From IMG/VR virus record IMGVR_UViG_2540341028_000010: a stretch of 7,486 bases of DNA; one strand, written 5' to 3'. The number at the start of each line of letters is the position of its first letter. Within the stretch, counting starts at the first letter, position 1. Shown here one piece after another: positions 1 to 6,707 of the stretch. The notes under the pieces were generated by a model, which saw nothing but the letters and a program-made list of their open reading frames with translations, was not told the origin of the DNA and searched no databases. Origin of the DNA: a virus (taxonomy: Duplodnaviria; Heunggongvirae; Uroviricota; Caudoviricetes). A program made the translations under genes and the position numbers.

Positions 1-20
1 CCCGGCAATTCAACATTTCA

Positions 21-526
21 TTATTTTAATAACCGCACCCGGCACGTTTTTCCTTTAATCTTCCCGCCCTGTAACTGTTTCCATGCTTTATGAGCAACAG
101 CCTGACGGACCGCGACATAGACATGCGCCGGATGCACGGCGATTTTGCCAATATCTGCGCCATCAAGCCCGATATCTCCTGTCAGTGCACCTAATACATC
201 ACCCGGGCGCATTTTGGCTTTTTTCCCGCCATCGATACACAACGTTGCCATTTCTGCTTCCAGCGGCACAATGGAACTATTAGCTGGCGGCGTTTGCCAG
301 TTAAGTTTTATCTGCAACATGTCAGAAATGATATTGGCCCGCTGTGCTTCTTCCGGAGCACAGAAACTGATCGCCAGACCGCTATTTCCTGCACGAGCTG
401 TACGGCCGATGCGATGTACATGAACTTCAGGGTCCCACGCCAGCTCAAAGTTCACCACCAGCTCAAGCGATTTAATATCCAGACCACGCGCAGCAACATC
501 AGTCGCAACCAGTACACGGGCGCTAC
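21..526 (-). pseudogene. dbpA: 3' portion (~168 codons) of ATP-dependent RNA helicase DbpA gene; 5' part removed/displaced by IS insertion
   Basis: Minus-strand frame is open and continuous from 526 down to the stop at 21-23. Translation ...[46 protein letters not shown]... contains DEAD-box motif VI ([10 protein letters not shown]) followed by a C-terminal RNA-binding-like region. The reading frame runs straight into the IS terminal repeat that begins at 527. Assignment to dbpA is from recalled sequence, not a search. Confidence 0.8.
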
Positions 527-551
527 TGAACCGCCCCGGGAATCCTGGAGA
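527..551 (+). repeat. Left terminal inverted repeat of IS629-like element
   Basis: tgaaccgccccgggaatcctggaga; reverse complement of 1813-1837 with 2 mismatches; first 14 bp perfect. Confidence 0.8.
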
Positions 552-580
552 CTAAACTTCCTGAGAAAGAGGTAAACAGG

Positions 581-907
581 ATGACTAAAAATACTCGTTT
601 TTCCCCCGAAGTCCGTCAGAGGGCGATTCGTATGGTTCTGGAAAGTCAGGGCGAATATGACTCACAGTGGGCGGCAATTTGTTCCATTGCCCCAAAGATT
701 GGCTGTACACCGGAGACTCTGCGTGTCTGGGTACGCCAGCATGAGCGGGATACCGGAGGCGGTGATGGCGGGCTCACCACCGCTGAACGTCAGCGTCTGA
801 AAGAGCTGGAACGTGAAAATCGTGAACTGCGCCGCAGTAACGATATCCTTCGCCAGGCTTCCGCTTATTTTGCGAAGGCGGAGTTCGACCGCCTCTGGAA
901 AAAGTGA
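581..907 (+). CDS. IS3-family transposase OrfA (HTH DNA-binding subunit), 108 aa
   Basis: ATG at 581 preceded by a purine-rich SD (aaagaggtaaacagg). Protein [51 protein letters not shown]... has an HTH followed by a leucine-zipper-like C-terminus ([26 protein letters not shown]), typical of IS3 OrfA. Stop at 905-907 lies just after the A5G slippery run. Confidence 0.85.
899..904 (+). other. Putative programmed -1 ribosomal frameshift window (AAAAAG) at the orfA/orfB overlap of the IS629-like element
   Basis: orfA codons AAA(899-901) AAG(902-904) TGA(905-907); orfB is open in the -1 frame from this point (GTG 904, ATG 907). IS3-family elements make an OrfAB fusion by -1 slippage on A-rich heptamers. 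The run here is G AAA AAG, one A short of the canonical A AAA AAG. Confidence 0.45.
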
Positions 908-1795
908 TGCCACTGCTGGATAAGCTGCGTAAGCTGTACGGGGTCGGACCGGTATGCAGTGAACTACATATTGCCCCGTCAACGTATTACCACTGTCAGC
1001 AACAGCGACATCATCCTGATAAACGCAGTGCCCGTGCGCAGCGCGATGACTGGCTGAAGAAAGAGATACTGCGCGTATACGATGGGAATCATCAGGTATA
1101 CGGTGTGCGTAAAGTCTGGCGTCAGTTGTTACGGGAAGGTATCAGAGTGGCCAGATGCACTGTGGCACGTCTCATGGCGGTTATGGGACTTGCCGGTGTT
1201 CCTCCGGGGTAAAAAGGTCCGTACGACCATCAGCCGGAAAGCCGTTGCCGCAGGCGACCGCGTAAACCGTCAGTTCGTGGCAGAACGACCTGACCAGCTG
1301 TGGGTGGCTGATTTTACTTACGTCAGCACATGGCAGGGCTTCGTCTATGTGGCGTTCATTATTGATGTGTTTGCCGGATACATCGTGGGGTGGCGGGTCT
1401 CATCGTCCATGGAAACGACATTCGTGCTGGATGCTCTGGAGCAGGCGTTATGGGCCCGTCGACCGTCCGGCACGGTCCATCACAGTGATAAAGGTTCTCA
1501 GTATGTATCGCTGGCCTACACACAGCGGCTTAAGGAAGCCGGATTACTGGCATCAACAGGAAGTACAGGCGACTCGTATGACAACGCGATGGCGGAGAGC
1601 ATCAATGGTCTTTACAAAGCGGAGGTAATACACCGTAAGAGCTGGAAAAACCGTGCAGAAGTGGAACTGGCCACACTCACGTGGGTGGACTGGTATAATA
1701 ATCGACGATTGCTGGAAAGGCTGGGCCACATCCCTCCGGCAGAAGCAGAAAAAGCTTATTATGCTTCCATCGGAAACGATGATCTGGCAGCCTGA
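904..1795 (+). pseudogene. IS3-family transposase OrfB (DDE integrase-type catalytic subunit), interrupted by a frameshift near 1190-1205
   Basis: The N-terminal part (904-1212, ...YGVRKVWRQLLREGIRVARCTVARLMAVMGLAGV then PPG-stop) and the DDE catalytic part (frame of 1082-1795, ...LRGKKVRTTISRK...RPDQLWVADFTYV...HSDKGSQYVS...DSYDNAMAESINGLYKAEV...) lie in different frames. The switch point is the C-rich run gttcctccgggg around 1193-1203, consistent with a 1-bp indel. Confidence 0.7.
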
Positions 1796-1812
1796 GTTCA
1801 CAGATAAAACAC

Positions 1813-1837
1813 TCTCCAGGAAACCCGGGGCGGTTCA
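1813..1837 (+). repeat. Right terminal inverted repeat of IS629-like element
   Basis: tctccaggaaacccggggcggttca; reverse complement matches 527-551 at 23/25 positions. Confidence 0.8.
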
Positions 1838-2189
1838 GGGTGAGGGTGGTGAAGGCCATCTGAGTTCTTTCTTTGTCCAGACAGATAAAGCCAGTATTAA
1901 TGTTGCATACCATCATACAGTTAATCAACAAAAAGAACTTGGCACGTTTGGCGCATTCGACCATGACTGGCATACGCTTGCATTTAAATTTAAGGGCAGT
2001 AACAGCATTAATGTTACTCCGGTGCTTGATGGTGTGGATGGACAGGCGTTTGACCTGGTGAAATGGGCCAATACTGCTAATGGACTCAACAGGTTTGTCA
2101 TTACGGATATTACAGGTAGTGCAGAAACCTACCCTGTACTTATTGATACGGTGGAAGTTAAAGCAAACAAAGCTGGAGCAGCCGCATAA
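1838..2189 (+). pseudogene. 3' remnant (~116 codons) of an unidentified gene truncated by the IS629-like element; possibly a prophage late-region accessory gene
   Basis: Open frame runs from the IS right end to the stop at 2187-2189, encoding ...DKASINVAYHHTVNQQKELGTFGAFDHDWHTLAFKFKGSNSINVTPVLDGVDGQAFDLVKWANTANGLNRFVITDITGSAETYPVLIDTVEVKANKAGAAA. There is no start codon or RBS of its own; the track ORF 1653-2189 is a chimera that reads out of the IS. Identity not recognised. Confidence 0.4.
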
Positions 2190-2328
2190 TTGCTAAAAAA
2201 AGCCGCCAGCGGCAGGAATGGAAGCTGGCGGAGGTAATCCCAATGGAGAATGTAAAGAAAAGATGCTTTCGTACATTGGTTTTTTAAATGAAAACAATTC
2301 TCATTGTCAACCATAACGGTAAGAAATT

Positions 2329-2511
2329 ATGACATTTATTCATCAGGTGATGCTGTACTTCTGTACGGCGGTCTGTGTGCTGTATCTTCTTTCGGGTGGG
2401 TACAGGGCTGTGCGCGATTTCTGGTGCAGGCAGATTGATAAAAGGGCCGCTGAGAAAATCAGCGCCAGTCAGTCAGCCGGAAGCAAACCCGAAGAACCCG
2501 TTACTCCTTAA
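2329..2511 (+). CDS. Hypothetical small membrane protein (60 aa)
   Basis: ATG at 2329 with a weak purine-rich RBS (ggtaagaaatt). Hydrophobic N-terminal segment (LYFCTAVCVLYLL) followed by a basic/polar tail. Sits in the AT-rich region upstream of the holin. No recognised homology. Confidence 0.3.
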   Translation: MTFIHQVMLYFCTAVCVLYLLSGGYRAVRDFWCRQIDKRAAEKISASQSAGSKPEEPVTP

Positions 2512-2536
2512 CAACCCCTTTCAGCGAGAAAATCCC

Positions 2537-2782
2537 ATGTCAGAAATCACATCCCTGGTCACTGCAGAGGCAGTGAAGGAAGTCCTGCGCTCTGAAGAAG
2601 TCCGGAGCGCACTGAAACAGAAACTTCGCCAGAATCTTGAGTCGCGTCTTGATGCAGAAGTGGATGCCATTCTGGATGAGCTGCTGGGCGTAGCAGCGGT
2701 TCCTGAGCCGGAAGGTATCGCGGGTGACGGGAGTGCTTCAGATGGCGGTGAACCTACACCTGACAGCGACATGATGATGTAA
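2537..2782 (+). CDS. Hypothetical small acidic protein (81 aa)
   Basis: ATG at 2537, 26 nt after the preceding ORF stop. [81 protein letters not shown] is helical-looking with a strongly acidic C-terminus. The long track ORF 2375-2782 probably starts at this internal ATG. Function unknown. Confidence 0.4.
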
Positions 2783-2858
2783 GCATGCGCAAGGGACCAT
2801 CGGTGTGTGCCGGTGGTCTTTATATTGTTGTGAGCTTCCGGATTGCGGGAGACGGGGT

Positions 2859-3074
2859 ATGTACCAGATGGAAAAAATCACAACAGGTGTGTCATACACC
2901 ACGTCAGCGGTGGGAACGGGCTACTGGTTCCTGCAGTTGCTGGACAGGTTTTCCCCGTCTCAGTGGGCGGCAATAGGCGTGCTGGGGAGTCTGTTGTTTG
3001 GGCTGCTGACATATCTGACTAACCTGTATTTCAAAATCAGAGAGGACCGTCGTAAGGCGGCGCGGGGAGAGTAA
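2859..3074 (+). CDS. Class II holin (pinholin), phage 21 S-like, 71 aa with dual-start motif
   Basis: [71 protein letters not shown]: two transmembrane segments and the basic C-terminal tail [13 protein letters not shown], closely matching recalled S21/essD/essQ-type holins. Two in-frame ATGs (2859 and 2868, M1 and M4). GGGAG at 2847-2851 lies 7 nt upstream of the first ATG. Confidence 0.8.
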
Positions 3075-3078
3075 AGCG

Positions 3079-3423
3079 ATGAAGAAAAAATACGAACTGG
3101 TTGTTAAAGGGATAAATAATTACCCGAATAAGATTACTGTTACTGTGGCACTGGAAATTGGTGGGTATCCGTCACTGTTGTTGCCAGATGTGGCGATTAG
3201 TCTTGACCGTACTGAAGATGCCACGCTGGAGTTTTACGAAGCTGAGGCGAAAAAGCAGGCGAAGCAGTTTTTCATGGATGTTGCTGCCGGGTTATGTGAA
3301 GGGGATGGTCCGTTGCCGGAAAAGCGCCCCGTAATTTTAGAGGCGCAGGATGTGTTGATAACCTACAGAGGAAAACTACCGGGAATAATTACTGGTTCTC
3401 TGAAGACTCCACCGCTGGCCTGA
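3079..3423 (+). CDS. DUF1327-like prophage protein (YdfR-like), 114 aa, lying between holin and endolysin
   Basis: ATG at 3079 with SD gggagag 8 nt upstream; starts 4 nt after the holin stop, suggesting translational coupling. Protein MKKKYELVVKGINNYPNKITVTVALEIGGYPSLLLPDVAISL... matches my recollection of the ydfR-type gene found between essQ and rrrQ in Qin-like prophages. Not verified by search. Confidence 0.6.
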   Translation: MKKKYELVVKGINNYPNKITVTVALEIGGYPSLLLPDVAISLDRTEDATLEFYEAEAKKQAKQFFMDVAAGLCEGDGPLPEKRPVILEAQDVLITYRGKLPGIITGSLKTPPLA

Positions 3424-3473
3424 AGACTTAACATATCCAGGGATTTGAAATCGATAAACCCTGATAAATATCC

Positions 3474-4007
3474 ATGAACACCAAAATCAAATACGGCCTG
3501 TCGGCTGCCGTTCTGGCGCTGATTGCCGCAGGTGCGCCTGCGCCTGAAATCCTCGACCAGTTTCTGGATGAAAAGGAAGGTAACCACACCACGGCATACC
3601 GTGATGGCGCGGGTATCTGGACCATCTGCCGCGGTGCCATCCTGGTGGATAGTAAACCTGTCGTCCCGGGCATGAAGTTGTCGAAGGAAAAATGCGACCA
3701 GGTCAACGCCATTGAGCGTGATAAGGCGCTGGCATGGGTGGAGCGCAATATTAAAGTGCCGCTGACCGAACCCCAGAAAGCGGGTATCGCGTCATTTTGT
3801 CCCTATAACATTGGCCCCGGTAAGTGTTTCCCGTCGACGTTTTACAGACGGATTAATGCTGGTGACCGCAGGGGAGCATGCGAAGCGATTCGCTGGTGGA
3901 TTAAGGACGGTGGCAGAGACTGCCGTATCCGCTCAAATAATTGCTACGGTCAGGTATCCCGGCGAGACCAGGAAAGTGCGCTGGCGTGCTGGGACATCGA
4001 CAGATAA
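3474..4007 (+). CDS. SAR endolysin (phage lysozyme, T4-lysozyme-like fold), RrrQ/YdfQ-like, 177 aa
   Basis: N-terminal Gly/Ala-rich weakly hydrophobic segment (LSAAVLALIAAGAPAP), typical of signal-arrest-release endolysins. Catalytic spacing E35-x8-D44-x5-T50 (DEKEGNHTTAYRDGAGIWT) matches the T4 lysozyme E11/D20/T26 pattern. Positioned after the pinholin as in phage 21-type lysis cassettes. Confidence 0.85.
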   Translation: MNTKIKYGLSAAVLALIAAGAPAPEILDQFLDEKEGNHTTAYRDGAGIWTICRGAILVDSKPVVPGMKLSKEKCDQVNAIERDKALAWVERNIKVPLTEPQKAGIASFCPYNIGPGKCFPSTFYRRINAGDRRGACEAIRWWIKDGGRDCRIRSNNCYGQVSRRDQESALACWDIDR

Positions 4008-4096
4008 GCAGAATATTTTGCTGAAAATAAGGCATGAGCACGCGGACGGATAACACGAAATCCTGCGAACTGGCGAAACGTAAGTGAATAAAAGTA

Positions 4097-4136
4097 AAAA
4101 CCCCGTTTGTTGGCACCAGGCGGGGTTTTGTGTTTC
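4097..4136 (+). terminator. Putative rho-independent terminator / hairpin downstream of the endolysin gene
   Basis: aaaaccccg (4097-4105) pairs with cggggtttt (4121-4129) around a 15-nt loop, followed by a T-rich tract (ttgtgtttct). The loop is long, so strength is uncertain. Confidence 0.4.
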
Positions 4137-4162
4137 TGACCTTGAGTAAGGCAAGGGAGAAC

Positions 4163-4345
4163 ATGGCGAAGTATAAACGAATTCTGTTGAGGTTGACCAT
4201 GAAAAACGGCCTTGAACTGAAAGCGCCTGTAACTGATGACATCAGCAGAGCACTGGCTTTTGCCATTAAGTGGGTGGCGGTCGGTGTTGCTGTGTCCCCG
4301 ATGCTGTATGGGCTGGCAAAACTGGTCATTGCGTTGAAATCGTGA
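4163..4345 (+). CDS. Hypothetical small protein (60 aa) with C-terminal hydrophobic/amphipathic segment
   Basis: ATG at 4163 preceded by purine-rich aagggag. MAKYKRILLRLTMKNGLELKAPVTDDISRALAFAIKWVAVGVAVSPMLYGLAKLVIALKS. Located in a ~480-bp insert between the endolysin and Rz genes. Confidence 0.5.
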   Translation: MAKYKRILLRLTMKNGLELKAPVTDDISRALAFAIKWVAVGVAVSPMLYGLAKLVIALKS

Positions 4346-4359
4346 AGGGAGGATTAAGC

Positions 4360-4491
4360 ATGTCAGACAAACTCATAACGCTGGCGAAGATCCTCTGTGT
4401 AATTGTCGGCATTTCATTTTCACTAATGCTGGTTGCTCTTTTTCTTTCCATGGCCTGGATGATGTTGTCTTCGTCGGGGCTGCTGGGGTGA
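4360..4491 (+). CDS. Hypothetical single-pass membrane peptide (43 aa)
   Basis: Strong SD aagggagg 7 nt upstream of ATG 4360. MSDKLITLAKILCVIVGISFSLMLVALFLSMAWMMLSSSGLLG is almost entirely one transmembrane helix. Its stop (4489-4491) overlaps the GTG at 4488 and lies 11 nt before the ATG at 4503 of Rz. Confidence 0.45.
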   Translation: MSDKLITLAKILCVIVGISFSLMLVALFLSMAWMMLSSSGLLG

Positions 4492-4502
4492 ACATAAACC
4501 GA

Positions 4503-4886
4503 ATGCTTTCCGCGTTTACCGTTATTCTGCTGGTGGTCTGTGGTGCGCTGTGGCTGGCAACAGACCATTACCGTGATAACGCCATCACCTACAAAGCGCA
4601 GCGCGATAAAAAAGCCAGAGAGCTGGAGCTGGCAAACGCAACCATTACTGACATGCAGCAGCGCCAGCGTGATGTTGCCGCTGGTCGTAAGCGCCTGCGG
4701 ATCAACGCCACCTGCTCCGGTACCGTGCGTGAAGCCACCGGCACCTCCGGAATGGATAATGCAACCGGCCCCCGACTGGCAGACACCGCTGAACGGGATT
4801 ATTTCACCCTCAGAGAGCGGTTGATGACAATGCAGAAGCAACTGGAAGGGGCGCAGGAATATATCCGCACTCAGTGTATTAACTAG
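4503..4886 (+). CDS. Rz-like i-spanin (inner-membrane spanin subunit), apparently shortened (~127 aa)
   Basis: N-terminal TM (MLSAFTVILLVVCGALWLA) followed by HYRDNAITYKAQRDK... and the conserved C-terminal PRLADTAERDYFTLRERLMTMQKQLEGAQEYIRTQC, matching lambda-type Rz. An alternative GTG start at 4488 is in frame. About 25 residues of the central coiled-coil seem absent relative to recalled lambda Rz. Confidence 0.75.
   Translation: MLSAFTVILLVVCGALWLATDHYRDNAITYKAQRDKKARELELANATITDMQQRQRDVAAGRKRLRINATCSGTVREATGTSGMDNATGPRLADTAERDYFTLRERLMTMQKQLEGAQEYIRTQCIN
4672..4824 (+). CDS. Rz1-like o-spanin embedded in the +1 frame of Rz; signal peptide appears truncated (possibly non-functional)
   Basis: +1 frame encodes MLPLVVSACGSTPPAPVPCVKPPAPPEWIMQPAPDWQTPLNGIISPSESG: the proline-rich mature region and C-terminus match lambda Rz1. 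Only 8 residues precede the lipobox Cys, and the upstream in-frame sequence is polar with no ATG. Confidence 0.45.
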   Translation: MLPLVVSACGSTPPAPVPCVKPPAPPEWIMQPAPDWQTPLNGIISPSESG

Positions 4887-4909
4887 TATTTTTGTTATCC
4901 GGAGAATGC

Positions 4910-5134
4910 ATGAAGAAATTACTGGTAACCGTAAAGCCTTTTCAGGGAACAATTCCGTTCCGTATTTTGCAGCGTGGTCGTGTTCTTGTTGAAGGTTCGT
5001 TCAGTGGTAAATGTACGCAATTACACTCCCGGACCTTTCAGGTGAATGCCACGAATGAAGAGCTAACCGTTGAGTGTACGATGAATGCCGCTAAATGCCG
5101 CATGGTATCCGCTGCATTACAGCCAGTGTGTTGA
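4910..5134 (+). CDS. Hypothetical protein (74 aa) downstream of the spanin genes
   Basis: ATG at 4910 with GGAG 5 nt upstream. MKKLLVTVKPFQGTIPFRILQRGRVLVEGSFSGKCTQLHSRTFQVNATNEELTVECTMNAAKCRMVSAALQPVC. Occupies the post-Rz slot where lambdoid phages often carry accessory genes; no recognised homology. Confidence 0.45.
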   Translation: MKKLLVTVKPFQGTIPFRILQRGRVLVEGSFSGKCTQLHSRTFQVNATNEELTVECTMNAAKCRMVSAALQPVC

Positions 5135-5221
5135 GCGACCTTATTAACCATGCGCGGTATTGTCGCCGTATCCCCGCATTAACAGAGACCGCAGCCTGAG
5201 GTGTACTGGCAATAGCGGACA

Positions 5222-6058
5222 CTACCATTTGTTCTTTTTTTGAGCAGCCATCTGATGATATTTTTCCCTGAAGGCTGCCGGGGAGATATTCCCCAGACGA
5301 GAGTGACGACGCTGACGATTGTAGAAAATCTCAATGTATTCCCGTATTACTGAGATGGCTTCATCCCGGTTATTAAAACGATAGTGGCTCAGGCTCTCAT
5401 TTTTCAGCGTTCCCCAGAAGCTTTCCATCGGAGCGTTGTCGTAACAGTGACCTTTACGCGACATTGATGTTTTCAGACCAGACTGCTCCTGTATGACCCG
5501 GTAATCGTATGCGCAGTACTGTGAACCTCGATCAGAGTGGTGGATTAGCCCGGCAGGTGGGCGTTGGCTCCTGAGCGCCATAAACAGGGCTTTACCTGTC
5601 AGCTCTTTTGTCATGCGCTCTCCCATGGCGTAGCCGACAATTTCGCACGTATAAACATCTTTGATGCCAGCGAGGTACAACCATCCCTCCTGTGTGGCAA
5701 CATACGTCAGGTCCGCCACCCAGACCTGATTTGGTGCTGTAGGAGCGAACGTCTGGTTCAGCAGATTTGGCGCAACTGGAAGATTGTGGTTCGGGTTCGT
5801 AGTCGCTCTGAACTTGCGTTTCTGCTTACAGCGTAGCCTTAGCTCCTTACGAAGACGTGCCAGTCGGTCACGACCAACGATGATGCCATTCTCTGCCAGC
5901 TCCGTCTGGAGCCGCCGGGTTCCATATGTTTCGCGAGTGCGGATATGTGCCACCTTAATCTCCAGTTTTAGCCGCTCATCACTTTGTTTTCTGTCTGAGG
6001 GTTCATGCTGTACCCAGTTGTAATAACCGCTCCTGGATACACCAAATACCTGACACAT
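5222..6058 (-). CDS. IS3-family transposase OrfB (DDE catalytic domain), 278 aa from the first ATG; normally expressed as an OrfAB fusion
   Basis: Contains the DDE region ...PNQVWVADLTYVATQEGWLYLAGIKDVYTCEIVGYAMGERMT...HHSDRGSQYCA...DNAPMESFWGTLKNE.... The -1 frame is open from the slippery site at 6139-6145 through to the stop at 5222-5224 with no interruption. Confidence 0.85.
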   Translation of the reverse strand: MCQVFGVSRSGYYNWVQHEPSDRKQSDERLKLEIKVAHIRTRETYGTRRLQTELAENGIIVGRDRLARLRKELRLRCKQKRKFRATTNPNHNLPVAPNLLNQTFAPTAPNQVWVADLTYVATQEGWLYLAGIKDVYTCEIVGYAMGERMTKELTGKALFMALRSQRPPAGLIHHSDRGSQYCAYDYRVIQEQSGLKTSMSRKGHCYDNAPMESFWGTLKNESLSHYRFNNRDEAISVIREYIEIFYNRQRRHSRLGNISPAAFREKYHQMAAQKKNKW

Positions 6059-6093
6059 CGCTTCAATGGGAAATTGTTGTCGCCATTGTTCGA

Positions 6094-6396
6094 TTAACGC
6101 GTATTTTTCAGCGACTCCTGTGCAAAATACGCTGTTGCTTTTTTTAATATATCTCGCTCAAGGCGAGCTTCATTTAACGCCTTACGCAGTTGCAGAATTT
6201 CAGATTCCAGTTCAGCCACCGTGCGGGAACCAGGAGTACCGAGCCCTTTTCTGGCGGCGGTAACCCATTGTCCTAAAGTGCCTTCAGGAAGGGATAATCG
6301 GGAAGCGCCTTCACTGATCGAAAGTTGATTTTCAAGAACCGTTCTGACAGCTTCGGCTTTGAACTCTTTAGAGTAACGTTGGTTTTTTCTGCTCAT
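6094..6396 (-). CDS. IS3-family transposase OrfA (HTH plus leucine zipper), 100 aa
   Basis: MSRKNQRYSKEFKAEAVRTVLENQLSISEGASRLSLPEGTLGQWVTAARKGLGTPGSRTVAELESEILQLRKALNEARLERDILKKATAYFAQESLKNTR, with the classic ILKKATAYFA motif at the frameshift region. Confidence 0.85.
   Translation of the reverse strand: MSRKNQRYSKEFKAEAVRTVLENQLSISEGASRLSLPEGTLGQWVTAARKGLGTPGSRTVAELESEILQLRKALNEARLERDILKKATAYFAQESLKNTR
6139..6145 (-). other. Programmed -1 ribosomal frameshift heptamer (A AAA AAA, followed by G) linking orfA to orfB of the IS600-like element
   Basis: Plus-strand T7 run at 6139-6145 is A7 on the minus strand, then G at 6138. orfA frame reads TTA AAA AAA GCA; the -1 frame continues open into orfB (...KKSNSVFCTGVAEKYALIEQWRQQFPIEAMCQVFGVS...). 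Confidence 0.6.
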
Positions 6397-6707
6397 TATT
6401 AGCTCCTTCTGATGCCATTCTATTCAGGAAGGAGTGTCCGTTAAACTCAGGCTACCTCAGCCCGACCGGGAGACTCCTCTGCGCGAGTGTGCGGGGATAA
6501 TCAAAAACGATACACACCGGGGTTTACCGCGTTAACGGAGCGCGGCGTTGTCCCCTCATGGTCGCTGGTCCGGTGCGATGGTGGAAGAAACCGGACGATG
6601 TGTTACCTCGCAAGCTCTGTTATGTCATGTGTCTGATTTGTGATTTAAGTCGGATAATTGTCGTTGCCATTAAGCAGAGGATTGATGACCGACAGGGTGG
6701 CATTGTT

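Follow-up and report, generated by a model that had tools for sequence, protein, structure and literature searches.

A 75-bp deletion between short direct repeats probably inactivates both nested spanin genes of a lambdoid prophage remnant in Shigella

Introduction

In phage lambda, whose Rz and Rz1 genes form an embedded spanin pair, the coiled coil CC1 of Rz comprises residues 27-87, and about 62% of the lysis-defective missense changes fall in Rz residues 57-88, the stretch L64-A73 being the most sensitive (Cahill et al., PMC5295617). The changes M1K and M12R in lambda Rz1 are lysis-defective as well (PMC5295617). Knockout of either Rz or Rz1 results in an absolute lysis defect with spherical cells that are bounded by the outer membrane (PMC6139136). 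The lipobox consensus quoted in the latter study is [LVI][ASTVI][GAS]C (PMC6139136). Lysis modules of cryptic prophages, for example that of DLP12, can stay expressed or active (PMC7918800), and for Shigella it has been suggested that the SRRz/Rz1 module of DLP12 was lost as a pathoadaptive step (Leuzzi et al., 2017, cited in PMC7918800).

Here we analyze a stretch of Shigella DNA of 7,486 nucleotides, hereafter called the window, whose Rz/Rz1 pair is shorter than that of its closest relatives. We regard it as highly probable that a repeat-mediated 75-bp deletion inactivated both nested spanin genes of a lambdoid, Stx-phage-like prophage, which is now an IS-riddled remnant in Shigella.

Results

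A lysis cassette between two IS elements

The window is a complete Shigella draft contig, identical to AERO01000163.1 (GCA_000193935.2; locus L011), and contains a P21/Stx-phage-type lysis cassette that is flanked by two IS elements (Table 1). Its left part consists of a dbpA fragment, an IS3-family element, the 3' remnant of a DUF6645 gene, DUF1378, DUF826, and the class II holin gene; these are followed by DUF1327, lysozyme, two small ORFs, Rz, a 74-aa ORF, a second IS3-family element, TonB_C, and YlcI/DUF3950. The left IS element, which we take to be IS629-like, links the dbpA fragment to the remnant of the prophage DUF6645 gene, and the right one is presumably IS600-like.

Table 1. Coordinates of features in the window and the basis on which each was assigned
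Feature	Position	Strand	Basis
Chromosomal dbpA, 3' fragment, cut by IS element	21..458	-	PF03880; K-12 dbpA context
IS3-family element	525..1838	+	blast boundaries vs other Shigella loci; Pfam calls on L011
Class II (P21-type) holin, 71 aa, full length	2859..3074	+	PF04971, 111.6 bits (cut-off 26)
DUF1327/YdfR-family ORF between holin and endolysin	3079..3423	+	PF07041, 153 bits; phrog_406
Phage lysozyme (endolysin), 177 aa, full length	3474..4007	+	PF00959, 86.3 bits (cut-off 22.3)
Terminator-like GC-rich hairpin, 13 pairs, followed by a T run	4097..4129	+	
60-aa ORF	4163..4345	+	phrog_1115; hypothetical in L001 and L002; present in full-length relatives
43-aa hydrophobic ORF	4360..4491	+	phrog_4906; present in relatives
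Rz (i-spanin) with internal 25-codon in-frame deletion	4503..4886	+	PF03245; phrog_13; alignments to lambda and full-length relatives
Deletion junction, one surviving copy of direct repeat TGATGTTGC	4670..4678	+	RM8385 parent: two copies 75 bp apart
Rz1 (o-spanin) remnant, +1 frame	4672..4824	+	translations; PF06085; phrog_3198; start-codon and Shine-Dalgarno scan
74-aa ORF 3' of Rz	4910..5134	+	phrog_2571
IS3-family element 3' of lysis cassette	5197..6459	-	Pfam and blast boundaries; missing at same site in L004-L008

The IS3-family element found at 459-1838 of the window also interrupts the DUF6645 gene at the same site in several Shigella genomes (loci L004-L008, at about 2003-3336), where it lies in either orientation. 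Its other flank in the window is the interrupted dbpA, not the N-terminal part of the esterase gene, and this arrangement of dbpA, IS3-family element, and DUF6645 points to an IS-mediated inversion or rearrangement. The second transposase frame of the IS copy in the window (904-1795) is split into overlapping ORFs at 904-1212 and 1082-1795, and the copy is one indel apart from that in L004; either this IS copy is frameshifted and defective, or the draft contains a homopolymer sequencing error here.

Beyond the cassette, terminase genes follow DUF3950 in the prophage of E. coli O103 RM8385 (L003). In L004-L008, the same position is instead taken by IS elements, a 31-aa tail-fibre-assembly fragment, and chromosomal ABC-transporter genes, which means that the terminase-to-tail region is gone in these Shigella genomes. 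On the other side, the DUF6645 remnant borders directly on an IS element, past which comes dbpA, and the cassette in the window is thus separated from any Q gene and late promoter. Expression of the lysis cassette from this contig is thus doubtful, considering both the heavy decay of the prophage fragment and the IS element that stands between the cassette and all upstream DNA.

The genes for holin and endolysin, which an earlier note on this DNA had described as intact in appearance, are indeed full length and nearly identical to intact relatives. The holin shares 97-99% identity with E. coli relatives, while the endolysin, which aligns end to end, shares 92-93% with E. coli relatives and 86% with that of phage PhiR5_2. 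The N-terminus of the endolysin is hydrophobic and, judging by its sequence, the E-x8-D-x5-T motif (EGNHTTAYRDGAGIWT) is conserved; we take this to be the catalytic motif, as in T4/P21-type lysozymes. In comparison with three aligned relatives, substitutions private to Shigella are V31F in the holin and S22P, G60S, K91R, and G174D in the endolysin. The terminator-like hairpin is located inside the lysis cassette, after the stop codon of the endolysin and before the small ORFs ahead of Rz, and is presumably read through only under Q antitermination. We considered the 60-aa, 43-aa, and 74-aa ORFs as candidates for a replacement spanin and rejected them, as all three also adjoin full-length Rz/Rz1 genes and none has a lipobox.

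A 75-bp deletion between two direct repeats

The window Rz is 127 aa long when translated from ATG 4503, or 132 aa with GTG 4488, and its frame at 4640-4720 reads ...ITDMQQRQRDVAAGRKRLRINATC... The earlier note had recognized in this stretch an in-frame deletion of about 25 residues between two DVAA direct repeats, and had proposed alignment with intact lambdoid spanin pairs as a check. In such alignments, 25 codons are missing from the window relative to both lambda and close relatives, which fully bears out the note, its residue count included. The closest full-length relatives contain exactly 75 bp (25 codons) more than the window. When positions 4350-4900 were compared with 5,426 complete E. 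coli genomes and 50,697 phage records, the best matches were two-piece alignments whose span in the record exceeded that in the query by 75 bp; plasmid matches to 4503-4886 likewise came in two pieces and were 75 bp longer in the record. Direct alignment with E. coli AF3 and phage PhiR5_2 revealed a clean 75-bp gap in the window.

The allele of E. coli O103 RM8385 defines the boundaries of the deletion, as both of its flanks are 100% identical to the window. Its extra 75 bp lie between TGATGTTGCTGC and TGATGTTGCCGC, two sequences 75 bp apart that match at 11 of 12 positions. Against phage lambda Rz, the gap amounts to exactly 25 residues and corresponds to D60-D84 or, equivalently because of the DVAA repeat, L64-A88. 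As the peptide encoded and the frame used are the same for both repeats, Rz stays in frame. Replication slippage or short-homology recombination is the likely mechanism, by which one copy of TGATGTTGC and everything between the 9-12-bp direct repeats (the DVAA codon blocks) would have been lost.

On the opposite strand, a 208-aa ORF (4326-4952) lies antisense to all of Rz; the codon composition of the nested genes probably gives rise to it.

Distribution of the deletion allele

The protein encoded by the window Rz gene matches ABB66515.1 of S. boydii Sb227 without a difference, and likewise an entry named 'MULTISPECIES: lysis protein [Shigella]'. These records cover 268 and 113 contigs, among them complete chromosomes of 4.57-4.73 Mb that were sequenced in independent projects. 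The deletion allele is fixed in a Shigella lineage and found on hundreds of contigs. Since the window is a short contig of a draft assembly, one might suspect that two short repeats had been collapsed during assembly or misread in sequencing. Such an artefact is so improbable as to be practically negligible, given the complete chromosomes and independent projects just mentioned and a repeat of 9-12 bp, which is far too short for assembly collapse.

To search for the allele elsewhere, we used a junction 45-mer with which a megablast hit can be seeded by deletion alleles alone. It was found in none of the 5,426 complete E. coli genomes and none of the 50,697 phage records. The earlier note had held that related functional phages with the same short Rz, an upstream non-canonical Rz1 start, and a verified signal peptide would argue against a spanin defect; no phage with the short allele was encountered in this phage collection. 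The exact 43-base junction had no match in a collection of contigs with one genome per species, a result that is uninformative as Shigella is filed there under E. coli. Among several Shigella genomes, the region 1838-5196 is 100% identical. This identity, together with the lesion-free holin and endolysin genes, fits recent decay and also fits retention.

Loss of the distal half of CC1 from Rz

The window Rz clearly belongs to its family, scoring 113.7 bits against PF03245 (cut-off 25.4) with the match in two stretches. Against phrog_13 (E = 5e-54), its residues 56-126 correspond to profile positions 84-153, an offset that is expected from about 25 missing positions; overall, the split profile matches are offset by about 25-28 positions. 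The N-terminal membrane segment, CC2, and both conserved cysteines (equivalents of lambda C99 and C152) are retained. The periplasmic architecture of a complete i-spanin is not, the missing part being the distal half of CC1, equivalent to lambda 60-84. Rz itself is therefore hit in the distal CC1, where the lysis-defective missense mutations of lambda cluster, and both spanin subunits appear compromised rather than Rz1 alone.

Loss of the start and signal sequence from Rz1

In the RM8385-type parent, Rz1 is a 61-aa protein, MRELKMKLCVLMLPLVVSAC-GSTPP..., encoded in the +1 frame of the full-length Rz and preceded by AAGGGA, for which anti-Shine-Dalgarno pairing is -5.3 kcal/mol. The +1 frame of the window reads ...CSSASVMLPLVVSAC... 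/ ...LLTCSSASVMLPLVVSAC... Comparison of the two translations substantiates the earlier suggestion that the deletion took away the start codon and N-terminal signal of Rz1: the ribosome-binding site and the ATG are gone, and of the 19 signal-peptide codons the first 11 are missing, including the charged and the first hydrophobic parts. From ATG 4672, MLPLVVSA is all that is left before the lipobox Cys, which are the eight residues of the MLPLVVSAC that had been reported, with no Lys or Arg among them.

Downstream of this point, Rz1 is undamaged. The lipobox VSAC, which conforms to the consensus, the Cys codon (4696-4698), and the 42-residue mature part are intact. Residues 9-49 of the remnant match positions 1-40 of PF06085 with 70.7 bits, that is, the mature o-spanin domain from the Cys onward, and the match to phrog_3198 begins at profile position 12. 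The NCBIfam library had no match for Rz, Rz1, or the small ORFs, nor for the full-length parent proteins, and is non-discriminating here.

An o-spanin would have its own start, a ribosome-binding site, and a signal of about 19 residues with a charged n-region, a hydrophobic h-region, and a lipobox, a combination that the window lacks. We listed every possible start in the open Rz1 frame together with its anti-Shine-Dalgarno pairing. GTG 4669, ATG 4672, and TTG 4675 leave 9, 8, and 7 residues before the Cys, respectively, none of them Lys or Arg, and their pairing is about 0 kcal/mol; CTG 4648 yields a peptide of 16 residues without Lys or Arg, the first seven being mostly Ser, Thr, and Cys; and GTG 4540 and GTG 4543 place 52 and 51 residues with a charged interior ahead of the Cys. 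None of the starts scanned in this frame provides an N-terminus resembling a lipoprotein signal. The PROSITE PS51257-type rule places the Cys at positions 15-35, with K/R within the first 7 residues. Counted from the canonical starts of the window, which supply no K/R, the Cys has position 8-10; counted from GTG 4540 or 4543, it has position 53 or 52.

One could nevertheless view the short allele as a natural, functional spanin variant, in which Rz1 is made from ATG 4672, GTG 4669, or the non-canonical CTG 4648 with a short or atypical signal, and in which Rz tolerates a shorter CC1. The deletion is in frame, and the VSAC lipobox, the mature Rz1 domain, and all conserved cysteines are preserved. 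NCBI moreover names the 50-aa product an 'Rz1 family lipoprotein'. Against this stand the N-termini described above, with their 7-9 residues from canonical starts or their beginning of mostly Ser, Thr, and Cys from CTG 4648, all lacking Lys and Arg, and the absence of Shine-Dalgarno pairing at the canonical starts. The Rz segment that is missing is, in addition, the one most sensitive to mutation in lambda (PMC5295617). Lambda Rz1 has in-frame ATGs at codons 6, 7, 11, and 12, and M1K is defective despite the 13-14-residue signals that these might provide (PMC5295617); an N-terminus of that length thus fails to rescue lambda Rz1, let alone one of 8 residues. Taken together with the phage records considered below, we judge a functional variant to be very unlikely.

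The NCBI name, given as 'Rz1 family lipoprotein [Shigella flexneri]' for 190 contigs, is based on homology only. In the same cluster, some E. coli entries of 47-51 aa with the name 'Rz1 family lipoprotein' may be start-codon miscalls of full-length genes.

Similar deletions in other prophages

Five cluster representatives among the 120 best Rz homologues are without the same Rz segment (L010, L014, L015, L017, and L018). L010 (6001-6384) encodes the identical short Rz beside a holin-endolysin segment that is 94% identical to that of the window. L014 (2001-2420), an E. coli draft, also has the window junction, in a gene that has diverged: SNPs lie 18 bp from the junction on its left side and 31 bp from it on its right side. 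The backgrounds of L010 and L014 differ, although their junction does not. L017 (194-586) and L018 (216-608) are metagenome contigs with the junction CGCGATGTTGCTGCTGG in a different parental background; they were assembled with k = 119 and k = 141 and are consequently not repeat collapses. Their junction is found in none of the complete E. coli genomes and nowhere in the phage collection. These two contigs are no proof of a different crossover point, as some full-length alleles have a T in the second repeat copy, which makes the crossover point in L017 and L018 ambiguous. L015 (10001-10390) has a distinct 78-bp in-frame deletion, through which the lipobox is lost too.

L010 is a less decayed relative of the window with the layout of a stx-less Stx-type prophage. 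It has an intact 617-aa esterase-like gene (DUF1737-SASA-DUF6645) upstream of the lysis cassette, and positions 1-4200 hold a DNA-methylase-like ORF and three tRNA genes (Met-CAT, Arg-TCG, and Arg-TCT) and no stx genes.

Similar in-frame deletions thus seem to recur at this Rz site in other prophages, and the five loci suggest that the DVAA direct repeat is a mutational hotspot for deletion. Occurrence of the same or similar deletions in other prophages also counts in favor of a functional short spanin, one of these prophages, L015, with Q, terminase, portal, capsid, and tail genes called, looking structurally complete. Neither junction type is present in any phage record of the collection, which argues the other way.

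Recurrence in separate backgrounds bears equally on the question of whether the inactivating deletion was selected rather than having drifted, either as pathoadaptive silencing of lambdoid lysis cassettes in Shigella or because disarming prophage lysis brings a general gain. Fixation of the allele across many Shigella assemblies would agree with selection, as would the pathoadaptive loss proposed for the DLP12 module by Leuzzi et al. in the form in which PMC7918800 cites it. Holin and endolysin, the proteins that would release peptidoglycan fragments, are untouched, and it is for this reason that we give the pathoadaptive reading a low probability. Far more of the prophage was lost through IS-mediated events, and hitch-hiking or drift in a clonal lineage suffices to explain fixation. 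The recurrence itself is also accounted for by the direct repeat acting as a mutational hotspot. As a protein search recovers in-frame alleles only, recurrence says nothing about selection and demonstrates no excess over other lesions. On balance, we consider selection of the deletion unlikely. The broader proposition that the DVAA...DVAA repeat is a recurrent hotspot at which both spanin genes are disabled in one in-frame step, and that the resulting alleles are perhaps favoured in resident prophages and in Shigella perhaps serve pathoadaptive silencing, is in our opinion quite unlikely. If true, it would mean that such prophages keep a holin-endolysin module with which explosive lysis is no longer possible.

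Discussion

Our findings favor inactivation of both spanin genes by a single 75-bp deletion. The deletion deprived Rz of 25 residues in the distal half of the coiled coil CC1. Rz1 lost its ATG along with the Shine-Dalgarno site ahead of it, and of its signal peptide the charged and the first hydrophobic part. With these losses, Rz1 should no longer be efficiently translated, exported, lipidated, or targeted to the outer membrane, and the outcome would be a cassette without a working spanin. If the cassette were expressed, holin and endolysin would be expected to degrade the peptidoglycan and leave spherical cells with an intact outer membrane, the Rz/Rz1-null phenotype. Lambda genetics likewise predict that the spanin of the window would not disrupt the outer membrane (PMC5295617). 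By analogy with lambda, we infer that the Rz/Rz1 pair of the window is almost certainly non-functional. What speaks against loss of function is the intact state of the mature Rz1 domain, the lipobox, the Rz membrane segment, CC2, and the cysteines, on account of which residual function is formally conceivable.

The lesion is prophage decay of the ordinary sort in a Shigella genome rich in IS elements; it represents no new system and opens no new question. Its main value is as a caveat for annotation, as the names of the two ORFs in public records, 'lysis protein' or 'endopeptidase' for one and 'Rz1 family lipoprotein' for the other, come without any mark of a pseudogene. It also provides a natural example of the shared fate of nested genes, in which one deletion between short repeats disables both partners.

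The closest relatives of the locus are Stx-type and lambdoid, namely the prophage of E. coli O103 RM8385 and the phages Lys8385Vzw and PhiR5_2, which show 95-100% identity on both sides of the deletion and share the neighbours DUF1378, DUF826, holin, lysozyme, small ORFs, Rz, TonB_C, and YlcI with the window. They differ in having the extra 75 bp, a complete 61-aa Rz1, and terminase and structural genes. The embedded spanin pair of lambda is similar in that its Rz and the window Rz agree at 75% of the aligned residues and have the N-terminal membrane segment, CC2, and the cysteines in common, and in that Rz1 is nested in the +1 frame, has a lipobox and a proline-rich mature domain, and stands with Rz at the end of the lysis cassette. 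Unlike lambda, the window has an Rz without the equivalent of residues 60-84 and an Rz1 without a ribosome-binding site, an ATG, and 11 of 19 signal residues.

With P21-type cassettes of pinholin and SAR-endolysin, among them essD-ybcS-rzpD/rzoD of DLP12, the window has in common a PF04971 holin ('Bacteriophage P21 holin S') and the succession of Rz/Rz1 after a lysozyme whose N-terminus is hydrophobic. It departs from them in its additional DUF1327 gene, the two small ORFs interspersed in the cassette, the defective spanin, and the IS element between the cassette and any upstream late promoter. The Rac prophage of K-12 also contains a lambdoid Rz/Rz1 pair (rzpR/rzoR) in a defective prophage, with one partner inactivated. 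There, Rz (rzpR) is truncated at its 5' end and flagged as a pseudogene, whereas the 61-aa Rz1 homologue rzoR is complete; in the window, by contrast, a single internal in-frame deletion strikes both genes, and neither is flagged in public annotation.
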